Shown: one piece after another, positions 14,921 through 38,816 of the stretch
How positions within the stretch are numbered: the first letter of the stretch is position 1
Layout: each line of letters begins with the position of its first letter
Origin: Actinomycetota bacterium
GTDB taxonomy: Bacteria; Actinomycetota; UBA4738; HRBIN12
NCBI GenBank assembly: GCA_035249905.1
Contig: DATFFT010000011.1
Coordinates: 3,502 to 67,501, forward strand
Length of the DNA: 64,000 bases
Direction of reading: 5' to 3'
The notes under the pieces: model-generated
Database searches by the model: none
What the model was told of the DNA's origin: nothing
The model's input: only the letters and a program-made list of their open reading frames with translations
Translations under genes and position numbers: made by a program

Positions 14921-14931
14921 GGGGATCCGAG

Positions 14932-16242: not shown

Positions 16243-16829
16243 TGGCGATCTTCGAAGGCGAGCGGCTCGACGAGGCGCGAGCGATCATGGCCCGGTACCC
16301 AGACGGCCGCCGGCGGTCGGCCGTGATGCCGCTGCTCTACCTGGCGCAATCGGTCGAAGGGTCGGTCACGCGCGATGCGCTGCGCGAGATCGCCGAGCTG
16401 ATCGGCGTGCGAACCGCCGAGATCGAGGCGGTCGCCACGTTCTACACGATGCTTCGCCCGCGCCCGACGGGCACCCATCTGATCGCGGTGTGCACGAACC
16501 TGTCGTGCGCGCTGCTGGGCGGCAACGATCTGCTGGAGGCGGCCCACGAGGCGACCGGTGTCCCGGTCGGTGGGGAGATCAGCGACGACGGCGAGTTCAG
16601 CGTGCACGAGGAAGAATGCCTCGGCGTCTGCGAGCTTGCCCCGGTGATCCAGGTCAACGTCGCGAACCACGATCGCGTGACGCCCGAGCGCGTGCGCGAG
16701 ATCGTCGGGTCCCTGCGCTCGGGCGACGTTCCCGAGCCGGCCAGAGGGCCGGCGGTCGAGAGCTTCAAGGCGGCGTCGCGCATCTTGGCCGGGCTCGAAC
16801 CCCTGGCCGAGGAGGGGGCGACCGCGTGA
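16242..16829 (+). CDS. nuoE: NADH-quinone oxidoreductase subunit E
   Basis: ATG 16242 overlaps the nuoD stop by 1 nt (TGATG). 2Fe-2S cysteines in VCTNLSCALLGG and ECLGVCELAP. Confidence 0.9.
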   Translation: MAIFEGERLDEARAIMARYPDGRRRSAVMPLLYLAQSVEGSVTRDALREIAELIGVRTAEIEAVATFYTMLRPRPTGTHLIAVCTNLSCALLGGNDLLEAAHEATGVPVGGEISDDGEFSVHEEECLGVCELAPVIQVNVANHDRVTPERVREIVGSLRSGDVPEPARGPAVESFKAASRILAGLEPLAEEGATA

Positions 16830-21746: not shown

Positions 21747-22267
21747 GCGAGCCGCGAGATCCCGAGACGCGGATCGAGCCCGAACCCGGCGAGCAGGGCG
21801 CGTGGGAGTCGGCCGTCGCGATCGGGAAGGGCTTGGCAACGGTCTTCAAGCAGACGTTCCGGCCCGACGACACCGAGCGGTACCCGAAGGAGATCGCGCC
21901 GATCCCGGAGCGTTCGCACAGCGGCCGGCATCGGCTGAACAAGCACGAGGACGGCCTCGAGAAGTGCATCGGATGCGAGCTGTGCGCGTTCGCGTGCCCG
22001 GCCGACGCGATCTGGGTCGAGGGCGCCGACAACGACCCCGAACACCCGACCAGCCCGGGGGAGCGCTACGCGAAGGACTACCAGATCAACTACCTGCGCT
22101 GCATCATGTGCGGCCTGTGCGTCGAGGCGTGCCCGACCCGCGCGCTCACGCTCACCGACTACTTCGAGCTGGCCTTCACGAGCCGGGAAGAGGCGATCTG
22201 GACGAAGGAGCAGCTGCTCGAGCCGCCGCCGCCGCTCGGCACCGATCCCGCCGACCGGGAGGGGTAG
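21743..22267 (+). CDS. nuoI: NADH-quinone oxidoreductase subunit I
   Basis: GTG 21743 overlaps the nuoH stop. Two 4Fe-4S motifs, [12 protein letters not shown] and [12 protein letters not shown]. Confidence 0.92.
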
Positions 22268-22272
22268 CTCGC

Positions 22273-22893
22273 GTGCCGTTGGACAACGTCGTCTTCTGGG
22301 TCTTCGCACCGCTGTCGATCGCGACGGCCATCGGCATGATGGTGGTTCGCAACGCCGTGCACGCCGCACTGTTCCTGGTCGTGAACTTCTTCACGATCGC
22401 GGTGATGTACCTGCTGCTCGACGCGCCCTTCCTGTTCGCGGTGCAGATCGTCGTCTACGCCGGCGCGATCATGGTGCTGTTCTTGTTCGTGATCATGCTC
22501 CTGGGCGTCGATCGTGGGGACCCGCTGGGCGAGCGCCTGTTCGGTCAGCGCACGACCGCGGTGATCCTGGCCGTCGCGATCGTGGCCGAGGCGGCCACGG
22601 CCATCCGGGCCGGGGTCGGATTCGCGACGAGGGCGCCCGAGGGCTTCGAGGCGGCCAACCCGGGCGGGAATCCTTCGGCGCTGGCCGACGTGCTCTTCCG
22701 TGACTACTTCTTCCCCTTCGAGGTGACGTCGATCCTGTTGATCGTCGCCGCCGTCGCCGCGATGGTCTTGGCGCTCCGCCGTTCGAGATCGGTCACCCAG
22801 CGCGAGATCGAGGAACACGAGGGCGACGACCTCGAGGCCTACGCCATGGCGCCGCCGGGGGCGCCGCAGTCGATGCGGGAGGGAACCCGGTGA
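22273..22893 (+). CDS. nuoJ: NADH-quinone oxidoreductase subunit J
   Basis: GTG 22273. Motif [54 protein letters not shown]. Confidence 0.88.
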
Positions 22894-23195
22894 GGACGCC
22901 GATCGCGTACTTCCTGCTGCTCTCGGCGATCCTGTTCGCCCTCGGCTCGGCATCGGTGCTCTTGCGCCGCAACGCCTTGCGCATCTTCATGGGGGTCGAG
23001 CTGCAATTGAACGCGGTGAACCTCACGCTCGTGGCGTTCTCGCGCATGCACCTCGAGCTCGACGGGCAGATCCTGGCGTTCTTCTCGATGGTGGTGGCCG
23101 CCGCCGAGGTCGTGGTCGGCCTCGCGATCATCGTGGCCGTGTTCCGGCGAACCGGCACGGCCGACGTCGACCGGGCGGACGTGTTGCGCGGATGA
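22890..23195 (+). CDS. nuoK: NADH-quinone oxidoreductase subunit K
   Basis: 101 aa. Motif [22 protein letters not shown]...[13 protein letters not shown]. Confidence 0.92.
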
Positions 23196-25072
23196 TCGAC
23201 CTGATCGGCCTCGCGATCGCGATCCCGCTCGTCGCGGCTGGCGTCAACATGCTCGTCGGCGCCCGGCTCGGCCGGTACGCGGGCTGGCTGGCGACCGGGG
23301 CCATGGCCGCGTCGTTCGCGATTGCGCTGGGAGCGCTGCTCGACCTGCTCTCGCTCCCGGCGGGCGACCGCACCCAGGTCGTCACGGTCGCGGAGTGGAT
23401 CCGGGCCGGCGCGGCCACCGTCACGCTCGATCTGCGGGTCGACCCGCTCTCCATCACGATGGCGATGGTGGTCACGGGTGTCGGTTCGCTGATCCATCTG
23501 TACGCGATCGGCTACATGGAGCACGATCCGAGGCCGGGGCGCTTCTTCGGCTACATGAACCTGTTCTGCGCGTTCATGCTCGCCCTCGTCCTCGCCAACG
23601 ACTTCGTGCTGCTCTACCTCGGCTGGGAAGGCGTGGGCCTCTGCTCCTACCTGTTGATCGGGTTCTGGTCGGAACGACCCGAGGCCGCGAGGGCCGCCAA
23701 GAAGGCGTTCATCACGACGCGGGTGGGCGACGTGATGCTGCTGCTCGGGCTGTTCGCGATCTGGAGCCACTTCGGCTCGTTCGATTTCGACACCGTGCTG
23801 GGCGCGGAAGGTTCGCTCCCCGAGATCGCGACCGGCACCGCCACCGCGATCTCGCTGTTGATGCTCGGCGGCGCGGTGGGGAAGTCGGCCCAACTGCCCC
23901 TGCACGTGTGGCTGCCCGACGCGATGGCCGGTCCGACCCCGGTCTCCGCGCTGATCCACGCGGCAACGATGGTCACCGCGGGTGTCTACCTCGTGGTGCG
24001 GACCCACGTGCTGTTCGAGATCTCCGAGATCGCGCTCACCGTGGTGGCGGTGATCGGGCTCGCCGGGGCGCTCTACGCGGGGTTCGCCTCGCTCGGCCAG
24101 TACGACATGAAGCGGGCGCTCGCGTATTCGACGATGTCCCAGCTCGGGTTCATGTTCCTCGCGGCCGGCCTCGGCTTCTCGGCGGTGGCGATCTCGCTGC
24201 TCGTGGCGCACGCCTTCTACAAGGCCCTGCTGTTCCTGACGTCGGGCAACGTGATGCACGGGCTGCACGACGAGATCGACGTCCGACGGCTCGGAGGGCT
24301 CGTCCGCGACATGCCGTGGACCGCCGCCCTGTTCGCGGTCGGCGCCCTCGCGTTGTCGGGTCTGCCTCCGTTCAGCGGCTACTTCACCAAGGACGCGATC
24401 CTCGAGCTCGCGAGCCATGACGGCGAGGTGTGGGCCTACGTGCTCGGATCGCTCGGTGCGCTGGTCTCCGCCTGGTACATCGCCCGCCTGTTCTTCACCG
24501 CGTTCATCGGCGATCGTCGGTACGAAGGCCGGGCACACGAGGCGTCCACGCTGATGCGGGCCCCGCTCGTGGTGCTCGCGATCGGGGCCCTGTTCGCCGG
24601 CATGTGGCTCGCGCTGACGCCCGATGGCCGGCTCGCGACGTTCCTCGAGCCCGTGGTCGGCACCGTCGCGGAGGGGCACGCCGGTCCCTCCACACAGGTC
24701 CTGGTCGCGATCTCTGTCGTGTTGACCCTGCTCGGCATCGCCATCGCCTGGCGTCTGTATCGTCCGGGCGCCGCCGAACGATGGATCTCGTTCCCCCAAC
24801 GCGAGCCGGGCCTCGCCGGCGCGCTGGGCCATGCGTTCTACCTCGACGATCTCTACGCCTGGATCGTCGGTGCGGTCGGGCTCCGCGGGGCGGCCGCGCT
24901 GGAACGGTTCGACCGGCTCGTCGTGGACGGCGCGGTCAACGGGGTCGGGCGGCTCGCCGTCCGGCTCTCCGGGCTCGCGCCGATCTGGCAGTCGGGGAAG
25001 GTGCGCCGCTACGCCCTGTCGTTCCTGGCCGGCGGCGTGGCGCTGCTCGTGTTCGCCGTGGTGAGGGTGTAG
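23192..25072 (+). CDS. nuoL: NADH-quinone oxidoreductase subunit L
   Basis: Antiporter-like subunit with [16 protein letters not shown] and [32 protein letters not shown]. Confidence 0.93.
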
Positions 25073-26611
25073 ATGGACGCTCCCTGGCTCACGCTCGTGA
25101 TCGTCGCGCCGCTGGCCGGCCTGCCGGTGCTCCTGCTGTGGCGTTCGATCTCCGACGAGGCCGCCCGGTGGGTCGGCCTCGCTGCCGCGCTGGCGGCGTT
25201 CGCCGTCTCGATCGGCATGCTGGCGAACTTCGAGACCGGCGAAGCGGGCTTCCAGTTGGTCTCGAAGCACCCGTGGGTCGAGTCGGTCGGGCTCACGTGG
25301 TTCCTGGGCGTCGACGGGTTCTCGGTCTGGCTCGTGATGGTGACCACGTTCATGTTCCCCATCGCGATCGCCGCGTCGTGGAGGGTCGAGCACCAGGTGC
25401 GCCGCTACATGGCGATGGCTCTGTTCCTCGAGACGGTGATCCTCGGGGCGTTCCTCTCGCTGGACCTGCTGTTGTTCTTCCTGTTCTTCGAGGCCCTGCT
25501 GTTCCCCATGTACTACATCATCGGCGTCTGGGGCTCGAAGCGCCGCATCTACGCCGCCACGAAGTTCCTGCTGTACACGATGTTCGGCTCCGCGTTCCTG
25601 CTCGTCGGCATCCTGTGGCTCTACATCGAGTCGGGGAACCAGCTCGGGAAGGCGACGTTCGACCTCACGGTGCTCGAGCAGGTGCGCCTGTCGACCGAGG
25701 CCGGCCGATGGCTGTTCCTCGCGTTCTTCGTCGGGTTCGCGGTGAAGGTGCCGGTGTGGCCGCTGCACACCTGGCTGCCCGACGCCCACACGGAGGCGCC
25801 GACGAAGGGATCGGTCGTGCTGGCCGCGATCCTGCTGAAGACCGGGCCCTACGGCATGCTGCGATTCAATCTGGATCTGTTCCCCGAGGCGTCCCGCTAC
25901 TTCGCCGACGCGATCATGGTGCTCGCCGTGGTCGGTATCGTCTACGGCGCGATCGTCGCGATGATGCAGAGCGACATCAAGCGGTTGATCGCCTACTCGT
26001 CGGTCAGCCACATGGGGCTGATCGTGCTCGGCATCTTCGCGTTCTCCGCCGAGTCGATGAACGGTGCGGTGCTCCAGATGGTGAACCACGGGCTCTCGAC
26101 GGGCATGTTGTTCCTGGTCTTCGGCATGCTCTACGAACGCACGCACACGCGGGAGATCTCCGATCTCGGCGGCATCGTGCAGATCACGCCCTGGCTCGCG
26201 GGCGCCTACGTCGTCGCCATGTTCTCCTCGATCGGCCTGCCCGGCCTCAACAACTTCGTCGGTGAGTTCCTGGTCCTGCTGGGCACGTTCTCGGTCGATC
26301 GGGTGCTCGCATCGATCGCGATCCTCGGCGTGATCCTGTCCGCGATCTACATGCTCTGGTCGTATCAGCGCACGTTCCAGGGCCCGGCGAAGGAACGGTG
26401 GGGGACGCTGCGGGACCTGTCCTGGCGCGAAGGCGCGATCGTCGCGCCGATCGTCGTCGCGATGTTGTGGATCGGCCTGCAGCCCGGACCGATGCTCGAG
26501 CGCCTGCGTCCGACCGCGGAGCTGGTCTCGGAACGCATCCGCACCGTGCAGGTGGGCGAGGCGGTCGAGCCGCTGGCGCGCACGAGCGGCGCGGGGGAGG
26601 AGGGGCCGTGA
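25073..26611 (+). CDS. nuoM: NADH-quinone oxidoreductase subunit M
   Basis: AVKVPVWPLHTWLPDAHTEAPT and IKRLIAYSSVSHMG. Confidence 0.93.
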   Translation: MDAPWLTLVIVAPLAGLPVLLLWRSISDEAARWVGLAAALAAFAVSIGMLANFETGEAGFQLVSKHPWVESVGLTWFLGVDGFSVWLVMVTTFMFPIAIAASWRVEHQVRRYMAMALFLETVILGAFLSLDLLLFFLFFEALLFPMYYIIGVWGSKRRIYAATKFLLYTMFGSAFLLVGILWLYIESGNQLGKATFDLTVLEQVRLSTEAGRWLFLAFFVGFAVKVPVWPLHTWLPDAHTEAPTKGSVVLAAILLKTGPYGMLRFNLDLFPEASRYFADAIMVLAVVGIVYGAIVAMMQSDIKRLIAYSSVSHMGLIVLGIFAFSAESMNGAVLQMVNHGLSTGMLFLVFGMLYERTHTREISDLGGIVQITPWLAGAYVVAMFSSIGLPGLNNFVGEFLVLLGTFSVDRVLASIAILGVILSAIYMLWSYQRTFQGPAKERWGTLRDLSWREGAIVAPIVVAMLWIGLQPGPMLERLRPTAELVSERIRTVQVGEAVEPLARTSGAGEEGP

Positions 26612-28053
26612 TCGATCCGCCCCGCGTCGAGCTCTGGGCGATCCTGCCGGTGCTGATCCTGTTCGCGGGGGCCGTGATTGCGTTGGTGGGTTCCGCCTTC
26701 GCCCGCCGAGCCGATCAGGCGCCGTTCGCGCTCCTCACGCTTGCCGCGCTCGCTGCGGCGGCGGCGGCGGCCCTCTGGCTCTGGAACCGGGAGCCGACGA
26801 CCGCGCTCGAGGGCATGGTCAGCGTCGATCGCCTGGCGGTCGTGGCCACGCTCACGCTCTGTGGCGTCGGTGCGTTCGGGGCGTACCTCGGATACCACTA
26901 CTTCGAGCGAGACGAGCTGCGGCGGAACGAGTTCTACGCCCTGCTGCTGTTCGCCCTCGGCGGCATGGCCCTGCTGGTGGCCGCCGCGGATCTGATCGTC
27001 GTCTTCCTCGCGATCGAGGTGCTCTCCCTCTCGCTGTACGTGCTCACGGCCCTGACGTTCCGACGCGGGCCGACCGAGGCGTCGCTGAAGTACTTCCTGC
27101 TGGGAGCGTTCGCGTCGGCGTTCCTGCTCTATGGCGTCGCGATCAGCTACGGAGCGGTGGCGACCACCAGCATCCAAGGGCTGGCGCGGGGGCTGGCCGG
27201 CACGACCGGGGACCAGTCGCTCGCCATCGCCGGCGCGCTGCTCATCGTGGTCGGCCTCGGGTTCAAGGTCTCGCTCGTGCCGTTCCACATGTGGACGCCC
27301 GATGTCTATCAGGGTGCCCCGAGCCCGGTGACGGCGTTCATGTCGGCGGCGACGAAGGTGGCCGTGTTCGTCGCGCTGGTCCGCGTGCTGCACGTGGCGT
27401 TCGTGGGCCTGCAGTGGGATCTCGGTCCCGCCATCGCAGCGCTATCGGCGGCCTCGATGGTGGTTGGCAGCGGGCTGGCGATCGCCCAGACCGACGTCAA
27501 GCGCTTGCTCGCGTACTCGAGCGTCGCGCAGGCCGGGTACATCCTGTCCGCATTCGTCGCTCCCGATCGCGACGGCATCGCCGCCGCCCTCTTCTACGTC
27601 GTCTCGTACGCTGCGGCGGTGATCGGCGCGTTCGGAGTCGTGATGCTGATCTCCGGCGGCATCCGGGAGCAGACCGGCTTCGAGCGCTTCCGGGGCCTCG
27701 GCCGCCGCCGGCCCGGTCTGTCCGCGCTCCTGACGATCTTCCTCCTGTCGCTCGCGGGCATCCCCCCCACGGCGGGCTTCGTGGCGAAGGTGTTCGTGCT
27801 GGGCGCGGCGACGAGGGCCGGCTACTGGCCGCTGGTGCTGATCGGCGCGCTGGCCGGGGTCGTCGGCGCCTTCTACTACCTGCGCATCGTCGCGTTGATG
27901 GCGATGCGTGAGCCCGAGGGGGACGACGTCGCCGATCCGTCGCCGCTGCCTCGGCTGGTGCTCGCGGTGCCGGCCGCGGCCGTCGTCGTGCTGGGTATCG
28001 TGCCGGGCGTGATCGTGCCGGTGCTGCGGGAAGCGGGGGTGCTCACATGGTGA
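26608..28053 (+). CDS. nuoN: NADH-quinone oxidoreductase subunit N
   Basis: GTG 26608 overlaps the nuoM stop. Motifs FKVSLVPFHMWTPDVYQGAPSPVTAF and VKRLLAYSSVAQAGY. Confidence 0.92.
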   Translation: MIDPPRVELWAILPVLILFAGAVIALVGSAFARRADQAPFALLTLAALAAAAAAALWLWNREPTTALEGMVSVDRLAVVATLTLCGVGAFGAYLGYHYFERDELRRNEFYALLLFALGGMALLVAAADLIVVFLAIEVLSLSLYVLTALTFRRGPTEASLKYFLLGAFASAFLLYGVAISYGAVATTSIQGLARGLAGTTGDQSLAIAGALLIVVGLGFKVSLVPFHMWTPDVYQGAPSPVTAFMSAATKVAVFVALVRVLHVAFVGLQWDLGPAIAALSAASMVVGSGLAIAQTDVKRLLAYSSVAQAGYILSAFVAPDRDGIAAALFYVVSYAAAVIGAFGVVMLISGGIREQTGFERFRGLGRRRPGLSALLTIFLLSLAGIPPTAGFVAKVFVLGAATRAGYWPLVLIGALAGVVGAFYYLRIVALMAMREPEGDDVADPSPLPRLVLAVPAAAVVVLGIVPGVIVPVLREAGVLTW

Positions 28054-28060
28054 GGCCGCG

Positions 28061-29071
28061 ATGAGCCGCGGGGTGATCCCGGGCCTCGAGCCGCCCGACG
28101 CCGTGCTCGAGGCCGACGTGCGCACGCGGCTCGATCAGGTCGAGGAGGCGCTCGAGAAGTCCGTTCGCATCGAGGCATCGGGCATGCTGACCGAGACCTC
28201 TTCGTACCTGATCGCCGCGGGCGGGAAGCGGTTCCGGGCGATGCTCGTGCTGCTCGCCGGGTACTTCGGCGACCCGGCCGACCCGCGGCTCGTCCCCGGT
28301 TCCGTCTCGATCGAGCTCGTGCACCTCGCCACGCTGTACCACGACGATGTGATCGACGAGGCCGAGGCACGCCGCGGCGCACCGAGCGCCAACATGCGAT
28401 GGGACAACACGGTGGCGATCCTCACCGGCGACTTCCTGTTCGCGAGGGCCTCGGAGATCTCGACGGAGCTCGGGACCGAGATCTGCCGTCTGCTCGCACG
28501 CACGATCGCGGTGCTCTGCGACGGACAGATCCGCGAGGTCTCGAGCTCGGCCGAGGTCGAGCAGGAGATCGCGAGCTACCTCGAGATCATCCGGCGCAAG
28601 ACCGCCTCGCTGATCGCGACGTCGTGCCGGCTCGGAGGCATGCTGTCCGACGCCGATGCCGAACACGTCGACGTACTCGAACGGTTCGGCGAAGCCCTGG
28701 GCATGGCGTATCAGCTCTCCGACGACATCATGGACATCACGTCGTCGCAGATCGAGCTCGGCAAGGAACCCGGCCAGGACCTGCGGGAAGGCGTCTACAC
28801 GCTGCCGGTGCTGCATGCGCTGGCTTACGACGAGCACCGGGGAGAGCTGGCCCGCATCCTTTCTCACGGCGCGCCCGACGGGGAGATGCTCGACCGAGCG
28901 CTCGACATCGTGCGGTCGGGCGGGTCGGTCGACGTGGCCCGCGCGGCCGTGACCGACGAGGTGCGAAGGGCGACCGGGCTCGCGATGCGGCTCCCCGGCG
29001 GCCCGGCGCGACATGCGCTGATCCAGCTGGCGAAGTTCTTGGCGGGCAGGTGCGGGGCGGTGGCCGCGTGA
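28061..29071 (+). CDS. Long-chain polyprenyl diphosphate synthase (heptaprenyl/menaquinone side-chain type, GrcC1/HepT-like)
   Basis: LYHDDVIDEAEARRG and YQLSDDIMD. Starts 7 nt after the nuoN stop. The position between nuo and htpX matches the mycobacterial grcC1-htpX neighbourhood as I recall it. Confidence 0.87.
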   Translation: MSRGVIPGLEPPDAVLEADVRTRLDQVEEALEKSVRIEASGMLTETSSYLIAAGGKRFRAMLVLLAGYFGDPADPRLVPGSVSIELVHLATLYHDDVIDEAEARRGAPSANMRWDNTVAILTGDFLFARASEISTELGTEICRLLARTIAVLCDGQIREVSSSAEVEQEIASYLEIIRRKTASLIATSCRLGGMLSDADAEHVDVLERFGEALGMAYQLSDDIMDITSSQIELGKEPGQDLREGVYTLPVLHALAYDEHRGELARILSHGAPDGEMLDRALDIVRSGGSVDVARAAVTDEVRRATGLAMRLPGGPARHALIQLAKFLAGRCGAVAA

Positions 29072-29111: not shown

Positions 29112-29477
29112 ATGAGTGACTACTACTCGTCGTACGGGGTACTGCTGGCGGTCGTCGCCGCAGGTGCGCTGCTGGTCGCAGTGGCGTTCACCACGGCACG
29201 GCTCGTCGCGCCCGCCAAGCCGAACGCAGAGAAGCTCACGACGTACGAGTGCGGGATCGATCCGGTCGGCGAGGGATGGTCGCAGAGCCATGTCCGCTAT
29301 TACGTGTACGGCTTCCTGTTCGTGATCTTCGACGTCGAGAGCGTGTTCCTCTTCCCGTGGGCTCGGGTCCTCGAGGACATCGGCACCGCGGCGGTGGTCG
29401 AGATGGCGATCTTCATCGCCATCTTGGCAGTCGGCCTCCTGTACTCGTGGCGCAAGGGGGTCCTGCGGTGGGCCTGA
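29112..29477 (+). CDS. nuoA2: NuoA paralogue, second complex-I-like set
   Basis: 121 aa. Motif YECGIDPV...[22 protein letters not shown]. Confidence 0.88.
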
Positions 29478-29977
29478 TCACCGAGAAGACTCAGCTGACC
29501 AGGATCCAACCGGTCAAGTTCATCCTCAACTGGGGGCGTCGCTACTCGCTGTGGGTCATGAACTTCGGCTTGGCGTGCTGTGCGATCGAGTTCATCGCGG
29601 CGTCGACCGCCAAGAACGACTTCATCCGTCTCGGCGTGATCCCCACCGCCCACGGTCCGCGCCAGGCCGACCTGCTGGTGGTCGCCGGCACGCTCACCGA
29701 CAAGATGGCGCCCGCCCTCAAGCGGGTCTACGAGCAGATGCCCGACCCGAAGTACGTGATCTCCTTCGGCTCGTGCTCGAACTGCGGCGGTCCGTACTGG
29801 GACAGCTACTCGGTCACCAAAGGCGTCGACCAGATCGTGCCGATCGACGTGTACGTGCCCGGGTGCCCGCCGCGGCCCGAGGCGCTGCTGCACGGCATCC
29901 TCGAGCTGCAGCGGAAGATCAAGGATGAGGACATCCAGGAGAAGTTCGGTGCCGTCACCCAGCCAGCTGTCTCCTGA
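29468..29977 (+). CDS. nuoB2: NuoB paralogue, second set (N2-cluster cysteines retained)
   Basis: GTG 29468 in frame in ORF 29249..29977. Motifs [22 protein letters not shown] and [10 protein letters not shown]. Confidence 0.88.
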
Positions 29978-30473
29978 CGACGTCGCCTCCCGGTTGCGGG
30001 CGCGCTTCGGCGACGATGTCTCCGACGTGGCCGATCAGCACGGCCACGCGGTCGCGACCGTGACCCGGGAGCGGTACCACGACGTCTGCCGCTTCGTGCG
30101 CGACGAGCCCGAGTTCGCGTGCGACTATGCCGATTTCACCTCGGCCGTCGATCTCGGCGAGGAGCGGGGGTTCGAGGTCCTGACCCACCTGTTCTCCACG
30201 GCCCACCACCACAACGTCCGCGTGAGGGTCGCCGTGCCCCATGACGACGCCGTGCTCGCCTCGGTGAGCGACCTCTGGGCCACGTGCGACTGGCACGAAC
30301 GGGAGACCGCGGAGATGTTCGGCATCCGCTTCGAGGGTCACCCGATGCCGGTGAAGCTGCTCCTGTCCGAGCCGTTCGAGGGTCACCCGATGCGCAAGGA
30401 CTTCTCCCTGATGACCCGCGAAGCGAAGCCGTGGCCCGGTGCGGTCGAGGGCGAGGAGGACGAGGAGGCGTGA
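29925..30473 (+). CDS. nuoC2: NuoC paralogue, second set (start uncertain; not fused to a NuoD domain)
   Basis: [20 protein letters not shown]. Only about 182 aa. Its stop overlaps the nuoH2 start. ATG 29925 overlaps nuoB2 by 53 nt; alternative starts lie at 29949 (GTG) and 29967 (CTG). Confidence 0.8.
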
Positions 30474-31483
30474 TCGACGTCTTCGCCGCGGCCGGCGTCT
30501 CGTTCATCGAGGAGCTGACCTCCAACTTCTGGCTCGCGCTCGTGCTCAAGACCGTGCTGGTCATGGCCTTCTTCCTCGTGGTGCCGCTCGGCATCGGCTA
30601 CATGGAGCACAAGGTGCTGGCGCACATGCAGGCCCGTGTGGGCCCGATGGAGGCGGGCGCCTTCCACGGGTGGGCCCAGCTGATCGCCGACGGCGTGAAG
30701 TTCATCCAGAAGGAGAACCTCGTGCCGGCCGCAGCCGACCGCACGGTCTACTCGCTCGCTCCTGCCGTGGCGATGGTGCCCTACATCGCCATCCTCGTGG
30801 TGCTGCCGTTCAGCGACACCTTGTTCGCTCTCAACCTCGATGTCGGCATCTTCTTCGTCATGGCGATGTCGAGCGTCTCCGTCATCGGGGTGCTGATGGC
30901 GGGCTGGTCGAGCGCGAACAAGTTCTCCCTGATCGGCGCATTGCGTGCCGCCGCGCAGCTGATCGCCTACGAGCTGCCCCTCGTGCTGGCGGCGGCGGGG
31001 GTCGTGATGCTCTCCGGGGTGACGTCGATGGTCGGCATCGTCGAGGCCCAGGAGTCGATGTGGTACGTGATCCCCCTGTTCCCACTCTTCCTGATCTTCA
31101 TGGTCTCCTCACTCGCCGAGCTGAGCCGCACCCCGTTCGACATGCCGATCGCCGACTCCGAGATCATCTACGGCGCCTACACCGAGTACGGGGGGCTGAA
31201 GTTCGCGTTCTTCCTGCTCGCCGAGTACGGGGGCATCGTGGCGCTCTCCGGCATCGCCGCGGTGCTGTTCCTCGGCGGGTATCAGGGGCTGCCGGGGATC
31301 CCGTTGCCCGACCCGATCTGGATGGCGATCAAGATCGGAGCGCTGTCGTTCTTCGTGATCTGGCTCCGCGCGACGTACCCGCGACTGCGTGAGGATCAGC
31401 TGCAGCGGTTCGCGTGGCTCACGCTGATCCCGATCTCACTCGTGTGGATCCTTGGCGCGGCCACGTTCAAGGTCGCGTTCTGA
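30470..31483 (+). CDS. nuoH2: NuoH paralogue, second set
   Basis: GTG 30470 overlaps the nuoC2 stop (GTGA). Motifs MEHKVLAHMQARVGPMEAG and LAELSRTPFDMPIADSEIIYGAYTEYGG. Confidence 0.9.
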   Translation: MIDVFAAAGVSFIEELTSNFWLALVLKTVLVMAFFLVVPLGIGYMEHKVLAHMQARVGPMEAGAFHGWAQLIADGVKFIQKENLVPAAADRTVYSLAPAVAMVPYIAILVVLPFSDTLFALNLDVGIFFVMAMSSVSVIGVLMAGWSSANKFSLIGALRAAAQLIAYELPLVLAAAGVVMLSGVTSMVGIVEAQESMWYVIPLFPLFLIFMVSSLAELSRTPFDMPIADSEIIYGAYTEYGGLKFAFFLLAEYGGIVALSGIAAVLFLGGYQGLPGIPLPDPIWMAIKIGALSFFVIWLRATYPRLREDQLQRFAWLTLIPISLVWILGAATFKVAF

Positions 31484-31495
31484 GGAGCTGACGCC

Positions 31496-32026
31496 GTGGC
31501 CATCGACACCCCACCCATCGACCAGCCGGAAGCCGGCGCCGGCCAGGGGCTGCTCAAGGGCCTGACGGTCACGCTCAAGACGATGCTGCGGCCCGCCGTC
31601 ACGGTGCAGTATCCGCACGTCAAGCCCGACCTTCCGGCGCGGACCCGAGGCGTGATCGCGCTGAAGCAAGCGAACTGCACCGTCTGTTACAAATGCGCGC
31701 GCGAGTGTCCCGACTGGTGCATCTACATCGACGCCCACAAGGAGACGCACGAGCCGGCCTCCGGTGGGCGCGGCCGGTCGATGAAGGTGCTCGATCGCTT
31801 CGCGATCGACTACGCCCTCTGCATGTACTGCGGCATCTGCGTGGAGGTGTGCCCGTTCGACGCGCTGTTCTGGAGTCCCGAGTTCGAGTATTCGGAGTAC
31901 GGCATCGACGAGCTCACCCACGAGAAGGAACGCCTCGAGGAGTGGACCTACACGGTGTTGCCCCCGCCGCCACTCGAGGAGGGCGCGGAGCCGCCGCAGG
32001 AAGAGCCGGCGGAGGGAGCCGCATGA
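31496..32026 (+). CDS. nuoI2: NuoI paralogue, second set (both 4Fe-4S motifs retained)
   Basis: [12 protein letters not shown] and [12 protein letters not shown]. Confidence 0.88.
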
Positions 32027-32526
32027 GTGCGCAGGAGTATGCGTTCGTGGTGCTCGCCGTGGTCGGGAGCCTCTCGGGGATCGCCGTTGTGACCTCGACG
32101 AACGTCGTCCACGCCGCCCTCTACCTCGTCGTCGCGCTGCTTTCGGTTGCGGGCGTCTACCTGTTGCTCGGCGCCGAGTTCGTGGCATGGGTCCAGATCC
32201 TGATCTACGTGGGGGCGATCGTGATCCTGTTCCTGTTCGGCCTCATGCTCACGAAGGCCCCCATCGGACGCGACGCCCTCGACAACCAGCAACGGGGGGT
32301 CGGGGCGATCGTCGGCGTCGGGGTCTTCGCCGGGCTCGTCTTCCTGATCCAGGATGCGTTCCCGATGCAGGACGCCCAAGCCTTCGAACCCGCTCGCGGC
32401 ACCACCGACGTCGTCGGCGATGCGATCTTCCGCAGCTACGTGCTGCCGTTCGAGGCGGTCTCGTTCCTGCTGCTGGCGGCGCTGATCGGGGCGATCGTGC
32501 TCGCGAGGAAGGACGACTCCACGTGA
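32023..32526 (+). CDS. nuoJ2: NuoJ paralogue, second set
   Basis: ATG 32023 overlaps the nuoI2 stop (ATGA). Motif [50 protein letters not shown]. Confidence 0.86.
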
Positions 32527-32825
32527 TCAGGTTGCCGCTCGTGCTGATGTTCTCGGCGCTGCTGTTCTCGGCGGGGGTCTACGGCGTGCTCGCCCGCCGG
32601 AACGCGATCATGGTGCTGATGGCCATCGAGCTGATGCTGAACGCCGTCAACGTGAACCTCGTCGCGTTCGCCGCGTCGCTGCAGCAGATGACCGGTCAGG
32701 TGTTCGCGTTGTTCGTGATCGCTGTCGCCGCCGCCGAGGTGGGGATCGGGCTCGCCATCGTGATCCTGCTCTTCCGCACGCGTGAATCGATCAACGTCGA
32801 CGAGGTGAACCTGCTCAAGTGGTGA
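32523..32825 (+). CDS. nuoK2: NuoK paralogue, second set
   Basis: GTG 32523 overlaps the nuoJ2 stop. Motif [25 protein letters not shown]...[13 protein letters not shown]. Confidence 0.88.
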
Positions 32826-34819
32826 ACGTGCTCGCCGCCGAGGGGGAGGTGGCCTTCGAGGCCACCACGAACGGGATCTGGTTCGTCGAGCACGCCTGGA
32901 TCGTGGTGCTGTTGCCGTTGGTCTCGGCCGCCCTGATCCTCTTCCTCGGCTCTCGCACCCCCGGCAAGGGGGCGGTCTACGGCATCGCCGCGGTGGGGGC
33001 GGCGTTCGTGTTCTCCATCGGTGTGCTGTGGCACTTCGTCGAAGGCGGAGGGCCGTTCGAGGGCAGCATCGACTGGTTCACGATCGGACCGCTCCATCTC
33101 GAGCTCGGCATCCTGGTCGACGGCCTGACCGGCGTCATGCTGGTGGTCGTGACCGCGGTCTCGCTGGCGGTGCACGTCTACTCGCTCGGCTACATGCACG
33201 GCGACGAGCGGTTCACCTGGTTCTACGTGGTGCTCTCGCTGTTCACCGCAGCGATGCTCACGGTGGTCGTGTCGAACAACCTGATCCAGCTGCTCGTGGG
33301 CTGGGAGATCATGGGCATCTGTTCCTACCTGTTGATCGGCCACTGGTGGGAGGTCAAGGAGAACTCCGACGCCGCGATCAAGGCGTTCATCACCACGCGG
33401 GTGGGCGACGTCCCGTTCATGTTCGGCATCATCGCCCTGATCGCCGTCACGGGGTTCACGACGACGAACATCGGGGAGGTCTCGCACGAGCTCGGGCTCG
33501 GCGAGGTCTCGCCCTTGTTCGTATCGGTCGCGGCTCTCCTGCTGTTCGGTGGCACCGTCGGGAAGTCCGCTCAGTTCCCGCTGCACGTGTGGCTCCCCGA
33601 CGCGATGGCCGGCCCGACGCCGGTCTCGGCGCTGATCCACGCGGCGACCATGGTGGCCGCCGGCGTGTATTTGATCGGCCGCCTCTTCGAGGTCTTCCTG
33701 CTGGCCGACGAGTGGGTGCTCACCATCGTGAGCATCGTCGCGGCGATCACGGCGCTGGGGGCGGCACTGCTCGCGATCGTGCAGGACGACATCAAGCGCG
33801 TGCTCGCCTACTCGACACTCTCGCAGCTCGCGTACATGGTCGCCGGACTCTCGCTCGGCGAGCTCGGCCTCACGGCCGGGTTCTTCCATCTGTTCACGCA
33901 CGCCTTCTTCAAGGCGTTGCTGTTCCTGTGCGCCGGCTCGGTGATCCATGCCGTTCACTCGAACAACATGAGCGAGATGGGCGGTCTGAGGAGGTACATG
34001 CCGATCACGTTCTGGACGATGCTGATCGGTTCGCTCGCGCTCGCCGGCATCATCCCGCTCGCTGGGTTCTGGTCGAAGGACGAGCTGTTGGTCGTGGCCC
34101 ACGAGGAGCATGCGACCTGGCTGTTCGTCGTGTTCCTGGTGACGGCCGTGATCACCGCGTTCTACACGATGCGCATGGTGATGCTCACGTTCTTCGGGGA
34201 GTACGAGGGCGAGGCACACCCGCACGAGTCTCCGAGGACGATGACCGGTCCGCTGATCGCGCTCGCGGCGGCCACGATCGGCGTCGGCCTGCTCGGAGCC
34301 CCACAGCTCGACGCGGTCTTCGGGAAGTGGGTCTTCTTCGAGGAGATCCACGAGGCGGTCTTCATGCCGTGGATCGCGGTGCTGTCGACGGGGGGCGCGC
34401 TGCTCGGCCTCGCCTCCGGATACGTGCTCTATAGAGAGCGGAAGGCACGGGATCCGCTGCAAGCGCCGATGGGGCCAGCCTGGAACCTCCTGCAGAATCG
34501 GTACTACATCGACGAGCTCTACATGCGAGCGATCGTTCGGCCCGTTCGCGACACCTGGTCGGCGGGTGTGAACTGGTTCAACCAGGTCGTGCTCGACGGC
34601 ATCGTCGACGGTGCCGCCGTCGTCACGAGGTGGGTCGCCCAGCTGGTCGCCTGGTTCGATCGGACCGTGATCGACGGCGCCGTCAACGGGGCCGGCGAGG
34701 TCGCCGGACGCACGGGCAACGCCCTGAGGTACCTGCAATCCGGCAACGTGCAGTGGTATGCCGTCGGGCTGTTCGTCGGCGTGATCGCGTTGGCCGTCGT
34801 GTTCATCCGAGCCGTCTGA
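32819..34819 (+). CDS. nuoL2: NuoL paralogue, second set (666 aa)
   Basis: [17 protein letters not shown] and [32 protein letters not shown]. Confidence 0.9.
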
Positions 34820-34838
34820 GAGGAAGCGTGGAGGCCAC

Positions 34839-36374
34839 ATGACCTGGGAGAACTCGGCCATCACGATCGCGACCCTCCTGCCCGTCGTGGGCGCGATCGT
34901 GATCGCCCTGATGCCGAAGTCGAGGGAACGCGAGATCCGAGGCATGGGCATCGTGGTCTCGGGGGCGGCGCTCGCGCTCGCGATCGCGATCGCGATCGGA
35001 TTCGACTACGGCACCGACGGGCTGCAGTACGAGCTCGACCTGGACTGGATCGGCACGATCGGGGTGCGCTTCCACGTGGGCATCGACGGCATCTCACTGC
35101 CGCTGTACGTGCTGACGTTCCTGCTCACGTTCCTCTGCGCGATCTACACGTGGCGCTTCGTGCCCGACCCCGGCCGCACCCGGGGGTTCCTGGCGCTGAT
35201 GCTGCTGCTCGAGACCGGCATGGCCGGCACCTTCATCGCCTTCGACCTGATCCTGTTCTTCGTGTTCTGGGAGCTGGTCCTGGTGCCGATGTACTTCCTG
35301 ATCGCGATCTGGGGCTCCGCCAACCGCGAGTACGCCTCGATCAAGTTCTTCCTCTACACGCTGTTCGGCTCGATCTTCATGCTGCTGGGCTTCCTCGCGA
35401 TGTACTTCCAGGGGCCTGATCCGCACACGTTCGACATGGTGGTGCTCCGCGACTTCGGCGCCGGAGGCGGGTTCGGCCAGACGTTCCAGCTGGTCGTCTT
35501 CGGCGGGGTGGCGCTCGGGTTCGCGGTGAAGGTGCCGATGTGGCCGTTCCACACGTGGCTGCCCGACGCGCACACCGAGGCCCCGACGATCGGCTCGGTC
35601 CTGCTGGCGGGCATCATGCTGAAGATGGGCACCTACGGGTTCATCCGCATCGCGATCCCGTTCCTGCCCTACGGCGCCGAGAAGTACGCGCCGTGGATCG
35701 GCGCGCTCGCCGCGATCGCGATCGTCTACGCCGCGCTCGCATGCCTCGCCCAGAAGGACCTGAAGCGGCTGATCGCGTTCTCCTCGGTCGGCCACATGGG
35801 GTTCGTGATGCTCGGCATCGCCACGCTGACCGAGATCGGCATCCAGGCGGCGATCTTCGGCATGGTGGCCCACGGCGTGATCACCGGCATGCTGTTCTTC
35901 TGCGTCGGGTCGATCTACGACCGGTACCACACGCGCGAGATCGCCAGGATCGGCGGCGGCATGATGCAGACGATGCCGAAGCTCGGCGGCGTGTTCGCGT
36001 TCGTCGCGATCGCCTCGCTCGGACTGCCGGGCCTGGCCGGGTTCTGGGGCGAGATCATGGCGCTGCTCAGCTCGTTCAGCCCCAGCGAGGTGTTCCTGGC
36101 CGATCAGGTCGGCCTGTTCCGCCTGTACATGGTGATGGGCGGCATCGGCACGGTGCTCACGGCCGGCTACTTCCTGTGGATGCTGCAGCGCGTGAACATG
36201 GGCACCCTGCCCGATCAGTGGCGACAGGCCGGCCTGCGCGACGTGCTCGCCGTCGAGTGGGTCTCGTGGCTTCCGCTGTTGGCGCTGATCCTCGTGCTCG
36301 GCCTCTATCCGAGGCTGGTGTTCGGGGTCACCGACGATGCCGTGGGCGGCTTGATGCGCCTGCTGGGGAGCTAG
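34839..36374 (+). CDS. nuoM2: NuoM paralogue, second set
   Basis: AVKVPMWPFHTWLPDAHTEAPT and LKRLIAFSSVGHMG. Confidence 0.9.
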   Translation: MTWENSAITIATLLPVVGAIVIALMPKSREREIRGMGIVVSGAALALAIAIAIGFDYGTDGLQYELDLDWIGTIGVRFHVGIDGISLPLYVLTFLLTFLCAIYTWRFVPDPGRTRGFLALMLLLETGMAGTFIAFDLILFFVFWELVLVPMYFLIAIWGSANREYASIKFFLYTLFGSIFMLLGFLAMYFQGPDPHTFDMVVLRDFGAGGGFGQTFQLVVFGGVALGFAVKVPMWPFHTWLPDAHTEAPTIGSVLLAGIMLKMGTYGFIRIAIPFLPYGAEKYAPWIGALAAIAIVYAALACLAQKDLKRLIAFSSVGHMGFVMLGIATLTEIGIQAAIFGMVAHGVITGMLFFCVGSIYDRYHTREIARIGGGMMQTMPKLGGVFAFVAIASLGLPGLAGFWGEIMALLSSFSPSEVFLADQVGLFRLYMVMGGIGTVLTAGYFLWMLQRVNMGTLPDQWRQAGLRDVLAVEWVSWLPLLALILVLGLYPRLVFGVTDDAVGGLMRLLGS

Positions 36375-36383
36375 AGCCACCCG

Positions 36384-37856
36384 ATGGACGTCGACTACCA
36401 CGCCCTGCTGCCGGAGTTCATCCTCGCGGGCACGGTCCTGCTCGTGCTCGTCGTCGACGTCTTCCTGCCCGAACGCACGAAGTGGTTCGCGATGCCGCTG
36501 GGCCTCGTCGGCGTCGTGGCCTCGCTGGTGGCCGTCGCCACGCTGATCGGGGCCGGCACCCGGGTGAGCTTCGGCGGCACCTACGTCGTCGACGAGTTCG
36601 CGCTCCTGTTCAAGGGCTTCTTCCTGGTCACCGCGGTCGTCGTGCTCTCGGTCTCGCTCCGTTACTTCCGGGAAGGCGGCTTCTACCAGGGGGAGTACTA
36701 CTTCCTGCTGCTGACCTCGTTCCTCGGGTGCGTGATGATGCCGAGCTCGCGCGACCTGCTGCTGCTGTTCATCGCGCTCGAGCTCGTGTCGGCGCCGGGG
36801 TTCCTGATGGCCGCGTTCCGCAAGGGCGACGTGAAGTCGAACGAGGCCGGGGTGAAGTTCTTCATCATCGGCGTGCTCTCGACCGCCGTGATGCTGTTCG
36901 GCATGAGCCTGATCTACGGCGTGACCGGCGGCGAGACCCAGCTCGCCGAGATCGCGTCGGCGCTCGCCGACGTTCCCGGTGAGCTGCAGACCCTGACGTT
37001 CGCGGCGATCCTGTTCGTCGTCGTGGGTTTCGCGTTCAAGGTCTCCGCGTTCCCTTTCCAGTTCTGGGCTCCCGACACGTACGAGGGATCGCCGGTGCCG
37101 GTGGCGGCGTTCCTGGCCGTCGCCTCGGCCGTCGCGGGCTTCGCCGGCCTGTTGCAGCTGATGTTCGTGGCCTTCGCGGAGCAGCACGAATTCTGGGTGC
37201 CGATCTTCGCGTTCCTGTCGGTCGCGACGATGTCCGTGGGGAACTTCGTGGCGCTGCGCCAGACGCAGATGGTGCGGCTGCTCGCGTACTCGGGCATCGC
37301 GCAGTCGGGCTACATCCTCATGACGTTCGCGCTCGTGACCGACGACGCGGCGTCGAACCGCACGGCCTTCGCGGCGGGGGTCGCCTACATCTTGATCTAC
37401 GGCATCATGAACCTCGGCGCGTTCGCCGCCACGGTCGCCGTCTCGAGGCGCCACCCGGCGCTGCAGCTCGCCGACTTCGCCGGGCTGCGCGAGACCGCGC
37501 CCGTGATCGCCGTGGGCATGGCGGTGTTCATGATCTCGCTCGCCGGCGTGCCGCCGACCGGCGGGTTCTGGGGGAAGCTGCTGATCTTCCAGGCCGCGAT
37601 CGAGCGCGGCGGGGGGCTCGGGCCGGCGCTCGCCGTCGTGATGCTCGTGAACTCGGTCGTGAGCGTCTTCTACTACCTGCTGGTGCCCCGGCAGATGTTC
37701 CTCCGGGAAGCGGCGGATCGCTCGCGGCTTCGTGTGCCCGCCCTCGTGACCGTCGTCGTGGGCGCGGCGACGATCGCGCTCGTGGGCATCTTCGTGCTGC
37801 CGAACCCGGTGGCGCGGCTCGCCGAGATCTCGTCGTTGGTCGGCCTCGGGCCCTGA
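36384..37856 (+). CDS. nuoN2: NuoN paralogue, second set
   Basis: FKVSAFPFQFWAPDTYEGSPVPVAAF and MVRLLAYSGIAQSGY. Confidence 0.9.
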   Translation: MDVDYHALLPEFILAGTVLLVLVVDVFLPERTKWFAMPLGLVGVVASLVAVATLIGAGTRVSFGGTYVVDEFALLFKGFFLVTAVVVLSVSLRYFREGGFYQGEYYFLLLTSFLGCVMMPSSRDLLLLFIALELVSAPGFLMAAFRKGDVKSNEAGVKFFIIGVLSTAVMLFGMSLIYGVTGGETQLAEIASALADVPGELQTLTFAAILFVVVGFAFKVSAFPFQFWAPDTYEGSPVPVAAFLAVASAVAGFAGLLQLMFVAFAEQHEFWVPIFAFLSVATMSVGNFVALRQTQMVRLLAYSGIAQSGYILMTFALVTDDAASNRTAFAAGVAYILIYGIMNLGAFAATVAVSRRHPALQLADFAGLRETAPVIAVGMAVFMISLAGVPPTGGFWGKLLIFQAAIERGGGLGPALAVVMLVNSVVSVFYYLLVPRQMFLREAADRSRLRVPALVTVVVGAATIALVGIFVLPNPVARLAEISSLVGLGP

Positions 37857-37922
37857 CGCACCGCTGGATCGGGATCCGACCCCTCGTATCGACCTGCCTG
37901 TGGCACCATTGGTCTCGAAGGA

Positions 37923-38816
37923 GTGATGACGTTGACACCTGGGATCAACCGCGCCAAGACATGGGTGCTGATCGCCGGACTGCTCGGGCTGTTCCTGCTG
38001 GTCGGATATCTGATCGGCGGGCGAGCGGGCATGACGGTCGCGCTCGTGCTCGGCCTCGTGTTCAACTTCGCGATGTACTGGTGGTCCGGCTCGATCGCGG
38101 TGCGCTCGACGCGTTCGCGCGAGGTGAGCGAGCAGGAGTACCCGCAGCTCTACCGCATCGTGCGGGAGCTGACGCAGGCCGAGGGCATGCCGATGCCCGG
38201 CATCTACGTCTCGGAGATGCAGCAGCCCAACGCGTTCGCGACAGGGCGGAACCCACAGAACGCGAAGGTCGCGGTGACGCAGGGCATCCTGCAGATCCTC
38301 GAGGAGCGAGAGCTGCGGGGCGTTCTCGCCCACGAGCTGAGCCACGTGGCGAACCGCGACATCCTGGTGGCCTCGATCGCAGCCGCGATCGGCACGTCGA
38401 TCAGCTACCTCGCGATGATGGCCTTCTGGTTCGGGGGAGACGACGAGGGCGGCGGGAACCCGATCGTGATGCTCGTGGCGTGGATCCTCGCGCCGATCGC
38501 CGCCGGCCTGATCCAGATGGCGGTCTCTCGCTCCCGCGAGTACCAGGCCGACGAGTCCGGCGCCTTCCTCTCCCGCGACCCGCAGGCGCTCGCGAGCGCG
38601 CTGCAGAAGCTCGAGCAGACGAGCCGGCGGGTCCCGCCGCCGCACTCGCTGCAACCGGGCGAAGCGCACCTGTTCATCGTGAACCCGCTGGCCGCGCTGA
38701 AGGGCAGGGGCGTCATGAGCCTGTTCAGGACGCACCCCCCGACCGAGGAACGGGTGGCCCGGCTGATGGCCGTGCAGGACGAGATCCTTCGACGGCAGGG
38801 CCCGATCGGCCGGTAG
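37923..38816 (+). CDS. htpX: Zinc metalloprotease HtpX (M48 family)
   Basis: HELSHVANRD zinc motif, N-terminal TM helices, and C-terminal FRTHPPTEERV. Confidence 0.92.
   Translation: MMTLTPGINRAKTWVLIAGLLGLFLLVGYLIGGRAGMTVALVLGLVFNFAMYWWSGSIAVRSTRSREVSEQEYPQLYRIVRELTQAEGMPMPGIYVSEMQQPNAFATGRNPQNAKVAVTQGILQILEERELRGVLAHELSHVANRDILVASIAAAIGTSISYLAMMAFWFGGDDEGGGNPIVMLVAWILAPIAAGLIQMAVSRSREYQADESGAFLSRDPQALASALQKLEQTSRRVPPPHSLQPGEAHLFIVNPLAALKGRGVMSLFRTHPPTEERVARLMAVQDEILRRQGPIGR

Follow-up and report, generated by a model that had tools for sequence, protein, structure and literature searches.

In a 64-kb window of DNA from an Actinomycetota bacterium (the whole stretch of 64,000 nucleotides that was analysed) we found a second complex-I-like gene set, nuoA2-B2-C2-H2-I2-J2-K2-L2-M2-N2, hereafter set 2, with products A2 to N2. 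It follows a complete nuoA-N operon (set 1, with products A1 to N1) on the same strand. Ten of the subunits of a second, eleven-subunit enzyme of the complex I type are probably encoded by set 2; this enzyme would lack the NuoE, NuoF and NuoG subunits (NuoEFG), and its eleventh subunit would be a divergent NuoD, here called NuoD2 or D2, displaced from the operon. NuoD2 would have moved to another chromosomal site, staying close to a gene for an arginine methyltransferase of the NDUFAF7 type. As a gene set, set 2 belongs to a kind that is known but uncharacterised, that of the nuo2 operon of Streptomyces; the model of a displaced D2 is new.

Set 2 consists of ten intact open reading frames on the forward strand, between positions 29112 and 37856 (Table 1). 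They match the Pfam families Oxidored_q4 (A), Oxidored_q6 (B), Complex1_30kDa (C), NADHdh (H), Fer4 dicluster (I), Oxidored_q3 (J), Oxidored_q2 (K) and, three times, Proton_antipo_M (L, M, N), all ten with E-values from 1e-99 to 6e-10 and far over the curated cut-offs. The genes are closely packed, with overlapping reading frames at the A2/B2, B2/C2, C2/H2, I2/J2, J2/K2 and K2/L2 junctions and a total of 40 non-coding bases in three gaps (12, 19 and 9 nt). At the junction of C2 and H2 the TGA stop codon of C2 (30471-30473) and the GTG start codon of H2 (beginning at 30470) overlap in the bases GTGA. An ATG at 29925 gives C2 a length of 182 amino acids (aa) and a GTG at 29949 a length of 174 aa; on three public metagenome contigs with identical sequence, the gene calls start C2 at 29949 and L2 at 32822. 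C2 also has a strongly conserved C-terminal tail of 20 residues (30420-30473), which in the alignment falls on the beginning of the linker between C and D in the fused NuoCD of Escherichia coli. An earlier note on this DNA had described ten nuo paralogues in canonical order with overlapping or near-abutting boundaries, a C2 of about 182 aa whose stop overlaps the start of H2 and leaves no room for a D subunit, and a complete nuoA-N 1 kb upstream on the same strand. The Pfam matches and the boundary check agree with this description, as do the GTGA at 30470-30473 and the position of set 1 (13460-28053), with the qualification that C2 has 174 aa if the alternative start is used.

The note had also described set 2 as devoid of NuoD, NuoE, NuoF and NuoG, which was corroborated by searches in all six frames of the window. 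With D1, E1, F1 and G1 as queries, tblastn found no second copy of D, E, F or G in the 64 kb. A NuoD profile built from 273 sequences and run with filters off recovered nuoD1 only (E-value 3e-182, the next best match having an E-value of 1.5), so that a nuoD-like reading frame hidden in the cluster, which had been considered, is not present. Having no nuoD between C and H and no nuoE, nuoF or nuoG, set 2 departs from the 14-subunit operon; it conforms to the 11-subunit (Nuo11-type) layout, with the order A-B-C-(D)-H-I-J-K-L-M-N and no NuoEFG genes. A gene similar to FpoF or to NdhS/NdhO, or a ferredoxin gene, was not found adjoining set 2 in the window. The same layout recurs in relatives. A one-genome-per-species scan with an alignment of C2 gave 192 relatives, and 80 loci were kept, all of them from metagenome-assembled genomes (MAGs) of uncultured Actinomycetota. 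No D gene lies inside the D-less cluster in any of these 80 loci, C2 stop and H2 start are spaced by -19 to +8 nt in 75 of them, and L1-M1-N1 followed by A2-B2-C2-H2-I2-J2-K2-L2-M2-N2 is the order in every locus with enough upstream reach.

Set 2 is, by all appearances, a functional and strongly selected unit and not a remnant, since its reading frames are intact, its catalytic and coupling residues are kept over 56-80 distinct orthologues and its conservation is at least that of set 1. B2 has the four cysteines of cluster N2, including a PGCPP motif, and I2 has two CxxCxxCxxxCP motifs; both features had been noticed before, and we found these iron-sulphur (Fe-S) cysteines to be kept in 66-68 distinct orthologues. 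The YECG loop and the FDVE motif of A2 are conserved in 72 orthologues. Both membrane glutamates are present in K2 and the E-channel glutamates in H2, and L2, M2 and N2 retain the Glu of transmembrane helix (TM) 5, the Lys of TM7 and the Lys/Glu of TM12, so that the key residues of the four subunits previously judged intact (H2, L2, M2 and N2) are indeed in place. Taken over the alignments, conservation of the Fe-S ligands, of the loop in NuoA, of the glutamates in NuoK and of the chain of Glu and Lys in L2, M2 and N2 extends over 54-80 distinct orthologues. The exception among the proton-path residues is the TM8 Lys of NuoN/NdhB, which is Ala at residue 249 of N2; this position is variable over 58 orthologues (Ser in 24, Lys in 22, Ala in 8), and N1 has Lys. 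In a comparison spanning about 50 species, set 2 was as conserved as set 1 of the same genomes or more so, with values of 87 vs 77 % for K, 71 vs 55 % for L, 80 vs 56 % for M and 71 vs 56 % for N. For B2 the median identity is 89 % over 77 loci. B2 also carries an extra Cys, in GSCSNCGG (gene at 29468-29977).

Compared subunit by subunit, as the earlier note had envisaged, the proteins of set 2 are only 31-52 % identical to those of set 1, with I2 and C2 at 31-34 % to I1 and C1, and the two sets are therefore old paralogues that arose by an old duplication. Among solved structures, B2 finds its best matches in mitochondrial NDUFS7/PSST (about 194 bits, vs 153 bits for the NuoB of Mycobacterium smegmatis), M2 in Paracoccus NuoM (362 bits, vs 274 for M. 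smegmatis) and N2 in cyanobacterial NdhB (292 bits, vs 191 for M. smegmatis NuoN). For both M2 and N2, cyanobacterial, alphaproteobacterial and plant mitochondrial subunits give higher scores than mycobacterial ones, and H2 scores best against the complex I of M. smegmatis (PDB 8e9g). In the regions that normally touch NuoD, the subunits B2, C2, A2 and H2 are canonical, B2 most closely, and because of this we expect set 2 to have a D subunit.

A candidate for this subunit was found among NuoD-like proteins outside the window. D1 was searched against 1.84 billion representatives and the best 150 NuoD-like proteins were taken as candidates for D2. Of those whose gene context was inspected, the sole orphan was P0274, a protein of 400 aa that is 37 % identical to D1, with no nuo gene nearby and a PF02636 (Methyltransf_28) gene just upstream. 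The high-G+C candidates P0193, P0276, P0251 and P0189 were rejected, their contexts being those of ordinary in-operon NuoD subunits of other complex I variants, and so was P0228, which is located in an I-C-D mini-cluster. The P0274 family is large and very conserved, and its named members come from Nocardioidaceae and Propionibacteriales MAGs. NCBIfam holds no dedicated model for D2, which passes the generic NuoD model only.

A metagenome scan with an alignment of orphan D2 yielded 80 loci, from 85 down to 48 % identity, which show two kinds of context. In 27 loci a D2 homologue (48-58 % identical) stands between C and H in an A-B-C-D-H-I-J-K-L-M-N cluster, the other subunits of which are closer to set 2 than to set 1 (B2 65-77 %, I2 54-73 %). 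Twelve of these clusters have enough upstream sequence to be informative: set-1-like L-M-N genes lie upstream in eight, and the other four have no nuo1 within 3-8 kb upstream. A PF02636 gene comes directly after N in 7 of the 8 clusters that reach past N. In the second kind of context D2 is an orphan; these genes form three sub-classes on high-G+C contigs, and most of the loci with enough flank have a PF02636 gene at a distance of 5 kb or less. The sub-class of loci L136, L137, L140, L142, L143 and L144 is nearest to the window in tetranucleotide composition, a similarity that we used as a heuristic for picking a sub-class and not as evidence. Its context is selA-selB, D2-proS and then a PF02636 gene 3-8 kb away, and its named members are 'Actinomycetota bacterium' MAGs, a label shared with the C2 family. 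Throughout this sub-class, in L173 (8085-12657), L174 (2723-8673) and L175 (6168-12292), the orphan nuoD2 has on one side selA-selB, for selenocysteine synthesis and on the opposite strand, and on the other side proS.

Since the clusters with D2 inside match set 2 and are followed by PF02636, the ancestral nuo2 was probably an 11-subunit operon that also had a methyltransferase gene and that often stood in tandem with nuo1. D2 would have left this operon in the lineage of the window (and, according to the published layouts, in Streptomyces too), and the methyltransferase gene is found near D2. Deletion of a D-E-F-G block from a duplicated 14-gene operon was rejected as an origin of set 2, as relatives have A-B-C-D-H...N without E, F and G.

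The D-less cluster and the orphan D2 were then linked within genomes through their protein accessions. The C2/D2 pairs are MDH4113180/MDH4112093, MDH5225242/MDH5224656, MDH5312950/MDH5314536 and HET6713155/HET6714451, and the two members of each pair lie 586-1586 NCBI protein accession numbers apart, which corresponds to one genome's block. As the C2 and D2 accessions fall in one block, we conclude that in four MAGs the D-less cluster is accompanied by an orphan D2. MDH4113180 is encoded on JAOUEA010000175.1 (the same contig as locus L013) in a D-less A2-B2-C2-H2 cluster, and the C2 proteins of the four MAGs are 80-85 % identical to the C2 of the window. A dedicated second nuoD elsewhere in the genome, which had been named as something that would speak against a NuoD borrowed from set 1, does therefore exist in close relatives.

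In its sequence D2 departs from D1. When matched to solved structures, D1 proves to be a NuoD of the usual actinobacterial type (591 bits for that of M. smegmatis, whose complex I, PDB 8e9g, is of the same type as set 1), whereas D2 is divergent, reaching at best 281 bits, to Nqo4 of Thermus thermophilus. B2, M2, N2 and D2 all score lower against M. smegmatis than against other lineages, and set 2 is therefore a separate clade of long standing, not one copied recently from set 1. With residues of D2 numbered as in T. thermophilus Nqo4, read from the structure-match alignment, and those of H2 as in T. thermophilus Nqo8, D2 retains His38, has Glu in place of Asp139 in most members and Phe in place of Asp401. 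Tyr87 is replaced by Trp in all 75 locus-derived sequences, orphan or in-cluster, whereas D1 has Tyr; Tyr87 hydrogen-bonds the quinone head group (PMC4758237). In H2, the Arg of the 'ER' motif in TM1 (Nqo8 Arg36) is His, and in the TM5-6 loop Glu223 is Ile/Val and Glu225 is Asp, each in 74 of 74 orthologues. The change of Glu223 to Ile/Val is found also in the relatives with in-cluster D2. The quinone pocket thus looks remodelled on both sides, by Trp87 and Phe401 in D2 and by His36 and Ile/Val223 in H2, and in that case the set-2 enzyme should differ from that of set 1 in the binding or reduction of menaquinone and in its sensitivity to inhibitors. The NuoD of piericidin-producing Streptomyces has likewise been described as having Trp instead of Tyr87 and an altered residue 401 (PMC4758237), and we regard it as a lead that these changes would fit D2 paralogues.

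D2 is further marked by the motif GYMHR, present in 196 of 196 sequences; the corresponding residues of D1, M. smegmatis and Thermus are GYLHT. If there is no gap between query residues 29 and 73, the counterpart of the Arg of GYMHR in the mouse NDUFS2 precursor is residue 118, which we take to be the mature Arg85, presuming a presequence of 33 residues and the numbering of the bovine sequence. Arg85 of NDUFS2 is dimethylated by NDUFAF7 (PMC3829151). The PF02636 genes linked to D2, all in related loci and not in the window, score 47-110 bits against a Pfam cut-off of 23.3, and one of their products matches 5ztz, a solved 'NDUFAF7 homolog', with an E-value of 7e-14.

In the enzyme that we propose, B2 would carry cluster N2 and I2 the clusters N6a and N6b, C2 and D2 would form the quinone module, seated on H2 and A2, and J2, K2, L2, M2 and N2 would make up the proton-pumping arm. 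Electrons would pass through N6a, N6b and N2 to the remodelled quinone site, and D2 would be methylated during assembly. The assembly of D2 with set 2, its methylation, proton pumping and the electron source are points that we infer. For the electron source we lean slightly towards a ferredoxin-like or other non-NADH donor. The 11-subunit architecture, the 4 of 12 distant loci without an adjacent nuo1 and the greater nearness of N2 and M2 to cyanobacterial and alphaproteobacterial subunits all argue for an independent donor. Electron input through the NuoEFG of set 1, shared between the two enzymes, could be considered as well, though with less confidence, and the very tight and conserved tandem with nuo1 argues for it.

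Sharing of subunits between the two sets has indeed to be weighed in more than one form. In the most far-reaching one, set 2 would assemble with NuoD1, E1, F1 and G1 into a hybrid isoform. This would be an NADH:menaquinone oxidoreductase alternative to that of set 1 and differing from it in the membrane arm, comparable to the swapping of NdhD/NdhF isoforms in cyanobacteria. The two sets run in the same direction with a single gene in between, set off by 8 and 40 nt, every fetched locus that reaches far enough upstream has this tandem, no D2 lies in the 64-kb window, and hybrid assemblies have been proposed by the Streptomyces authors (PMC3765725, PMC9239103). We nevertheless find the hybrid rather improbable, and with it the earlier note's suggestion that NuoD is borrowed from set 1, because a distinct and dedicated D2 family exists, which is in-cluster in relatives and co-occurs as an orphan with the D-less cluster in four related MAGs. 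Moreover, I2 and C2 are so dissimilar from I1 and C1 (31-34 % identity) that a single D1 would have to fit two very different sets of partners, and the changes in the quinone cavity of H2 go with those of D2, not with D1. If instead nuo2 with its own D2 docked the NuoEFG of set 1, the result would be a second NADH dehydrogenase sharing the NADH-oxidising module only. This we hold to be unlikely, although clearly less so than the hybrid: in all close loci, and in 8 of the 12 distant ones that are informative, a nuo2-type cluster comes directly after an operon of the set-1 type, and no gene for an alternative input module lies beside nuo2 in the window. Furthermore, I1 (21743-22267) and I2 (31496-32026), despite an identity of 31 %, share the C-terminal motif PPPPL, which in I2 sits within a conserved stretch of 16 residues and may be a common docking element. 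What speaks against such docking is that 4 of the 12 loci with in-cluster D2 have no nuo1 within 3-8 kb upstream and that N2 and M2 score above mycobacterial subunits for cyanobacterial, alphaproteobacterial and plant mitochondrial ones. In addition, the literature generally assigns other donors to further 11-subunit enzymes that coexist with a 14-subunit one (PMC4453560, PMC11238625), which is background and no test.

A complex that truly works without NuoD, for example as a redox-regulated cation/proton transporter, would account for the lack of a D gene in the cluster in 80 of 80 loci. It is very improbable, since all solved relatives place cluster N2 at the interface of B and D, with C wrapped around D, since the contact regions of B2, C2, the A2 loop and H2 are canonical, and since a matching D2 exists. 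Still harder to believe is a decaying duplicate without function, for which the missing genes speak and nothing further: there are no frame disruptions, the Fe-S ligands and proton-channel residues are all conserved, conservation over about 50 species is above that of set 1, and the Streptomyces counterpart is expressed (PMC9739823, PMC3765725). The displaced NuoD2 that we prefer to these alternatives also has points standing against it. The link within one genome is the closeness of NCBI accessions in four MAGs and not a shared contig, and neither a D2 nor a PF02636 gene was found in this organism's 64-kb window (of a contig of 677 kb). The assembly of D2 with set 2 is deduced from sequence and gene context, and the tight tandem with nuo1, with gaps of 8 nt and 40 nt round a single gene, fits the sharing of subunits too. 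Quinone reduction at the canonical site is uncertain as well, since Trp at position 87 nearly abolishes the reduction of long-chain quinones in the model enzymes cited in PMC4758237.

The closest known system is that of Streptomyces, in which nuoA2, nuoB2 and nuoH2-N2 form one operon and a nuoD2 lies separately (PMC3765725, PMC8388888). Its function is called unclear (PMC3765725, PMC8388888, PMC9239103), one suggestion has been a hybrid with set 1 (PMC9239103), transcripts have been detected, and the proteins of the operon have been identified by proteomics (PMC9739823). The correspondence of set 2 to the Streptomyces nuoA2-N2 genes, which the earlier note had brought up, is in keeping with the published operon layout (PMC3765725, PMC8388888, PMC9239103), on which the comparison is based. 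Streptomyces nuo2 (SCO4599-SCO4608) has, like set 2, an order without D, E, F and G beside a full nuoA-N, and a second nuoD elsewhere in the genome, as in the wider family of the window. The two nuo sets of Streptomyces are separated by about 25 genes, whereas one gene (1 kb) separates them here, and the lineage of the window comprises uncultured Actinomycetota represented by MAGs only. In the library that was searched, no paper dealt with the identity of nuoD2 or the mechanism of the nuo2 complex. SCO4609, downstream of Streptomyces nuo2, is presumably htpX.

Once D2 is counted, set 2 has the same subunits as the 11-subunit enzymes (cyanobacterial and plastid NDH-1, the Desulfitobacterium enzyme and archaeal Fpo) and, like them, no NADH module. 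It differs from these in that D lies outside the operon, that D2 has Trp87 and Phe401, that the cluster is in tandem with a 14-subunit operon, that no NdhS/NdhO-like or FpoF-like gene is nearby, and that B2 has a tandem-Cys N2 motif and PSST as its best matches. The mitochondrial pair of NDUFS2 and NDUFAF7 (MidA) provides another parallel, as D2 likewise has Arg where NDUFS2 carries the methylated Arg85 and a PF02636 gene is linked to D2; NDUFS2 keeps the quinone-binding Tyr, whereas D2 has Trp and its methylation is a prediction. The bacterial homologues of NDUFAF7 that have been discussed are alphaproteobacterial (PMC9006661).

Several other variants of complex I were observed in the loci that we retrieved. 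L084 (8532-21227) has an 11-subunit A-B-C-D-H-I-J-K-L-M-N cluster with a pyruvate:ferredoxin oxidoreductase gene directly after it, which suggests a ferredoxin-fed enzyme; as a source of set 2 it was rejected, being equally distant from set 1 and set 2. L086 (6705-16413) has a complex I variant with a NuoH of 493 aa and, at the position expected for NuoI, a protein of 354 aa without a Pfam match. L087 (6591-12287) has A-B-C-D, a short NuoG-like gene (447 aa) and H-I, followed by cell-shape genes, with no J-N within 5 kb. L088 (1-2588) and L089 (759-3407), with a G+C content of 73 %, encode a NuoI-like ferredoxin, a NuoC-like protein, a NuoD-like protein (383 aa, with 'GPTHPVTHG') and an unknown protein of 160 aa, with no membrane subunits nearby.

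The features of the window, which has a G+C content of about 69 %, are collected in Table 1. The polyprenyl diphosphate synthase gene fills the 1 kb between the two sets, the stop of N1 lying 8 nt before it and A2 40 nt after it. Promoter and terminator scans of the set 1/set 2 junctions and of the cluster ends found none in this DNA of 69 % G+C, a result that does not decide on co-transcription. A gene for a FAD-dependent reductase (PF01494, geranylgeranyl-reductase/MenJ-like; 12193-13443) precedes nuoA1, so that the surroundings are menaquinone-related, with this reductase before nuoA1, the polyprenyl synthase between the sets and htpX after nuoN2. In mycobacteria menJ, grcC1 and htpX are adjacent, and both nuo sets therefore look like insertions into a menJ-grcC1-htpX block. 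Long antisense reading frames (for example one of 1328 aa at 35094-39080 on the reverse strand) failed the third-position G+C test and were discarded as artefacts of high G+C.

Table 1. Genes of the two nuo sets and their neighbours, in positions of the 64-kb window.
Feature	Position	Strand	Description
Set 1, nuoA-B-C-D-E-F-G-H-I-J-K-L-M-N	13460..28053	+	Pfam match per gene; canonical 14-subunit complex I
nuoD1	14932..16242	+	Sole NuoD gene of the window; quinone-site Tyr in 'TRADYL'; Thr in 'GYLHTGIEK'
Polyprenyl diphosphate synthase gene	28061..29071	+	PF00348 on identical public contigs
nuoA2, 121 aa	29112..29477	+	PF00507, E 3e-36
nuoB2, 169 aa	29468..29977	+	PF01058; GTG start overlaps A2 stop
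nuoC2, 174 aa	29949..30473	+	PF00329, E 8e-37; ordinary NuoC core, conserved acidic C-terminal tail
nuoH2, 337 aa	30470..31483	+	PF00146, E 1e-99
nuoI2, 176 aa	31496..32026	+	Fer4 dicluster; two CxxCxxCxxxCP motifs
nuoJ2, 167 aa	32023..32526	+	PF00499
nuoK2, 100 aa	32523..32825	+	PF00420
nuoL2, 665 aa, C-terminal extension	32822..34819	+	PF00662 and PF00361
nuoM2, 511 aa	34839..36374	+	PF00361
nuoN2, 490 aa	36384..37856	+	PF00361
htpX-type M48 peptidase gene, synteny marker	37923..38816	+	PF01435 on identical public contigs; directly downstream

Beyond this window, we tentatively hypothesise that the Actinomycetota possess a widespread and previously undefined clade of 11-subunit enzymes, composed of nuo2, NuoD2 and an NDUFAF7-like methyltransferase, with a donor, acceptor or direction of its own. 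Its hallmarks might be Trp87 and Phe401 in D2, the replacement of Arg36 by His, Leu or Phe and of Glu223 by Ile/Val in H2, and a methyl-arginine of the mitochondrial kind beside cluster N2. An altered way of working could possibly take the form of a ferredoxin-linked, a reverse-running or an intrinsically piericidin-insensitive enzyme.

What the second nuo set does in actinomycetes, antibiotic producers included, has been asked ever since the Streptomyces genomes were sequenced. For the paradox of a complex I without D, our analysis offers a model with a displaced NuoD2, a distinctive quinone site and a linked methyltransferase of the NDUFAF7 type, the parts of which can be recognised in any genome by the sequence markers 'NR[HI]DW', 'GYMHR' and PF02636. 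If the model is true, the link in one operon would be the first bacterial genomic evidence outside the Alphaproteobacteria that ties NDUFAF7-type enzymes to NuoD, and arginine methylation beside cluster N2 would not be a mitochondrial and alphaproteobacterial speciality. Natural enzymes with Trp87 would likewise be a resource for the study of quinone chemistry and of inhibitor resistance, and models of respiration in actinomycetes should then count two different proton-pumping enzymes.

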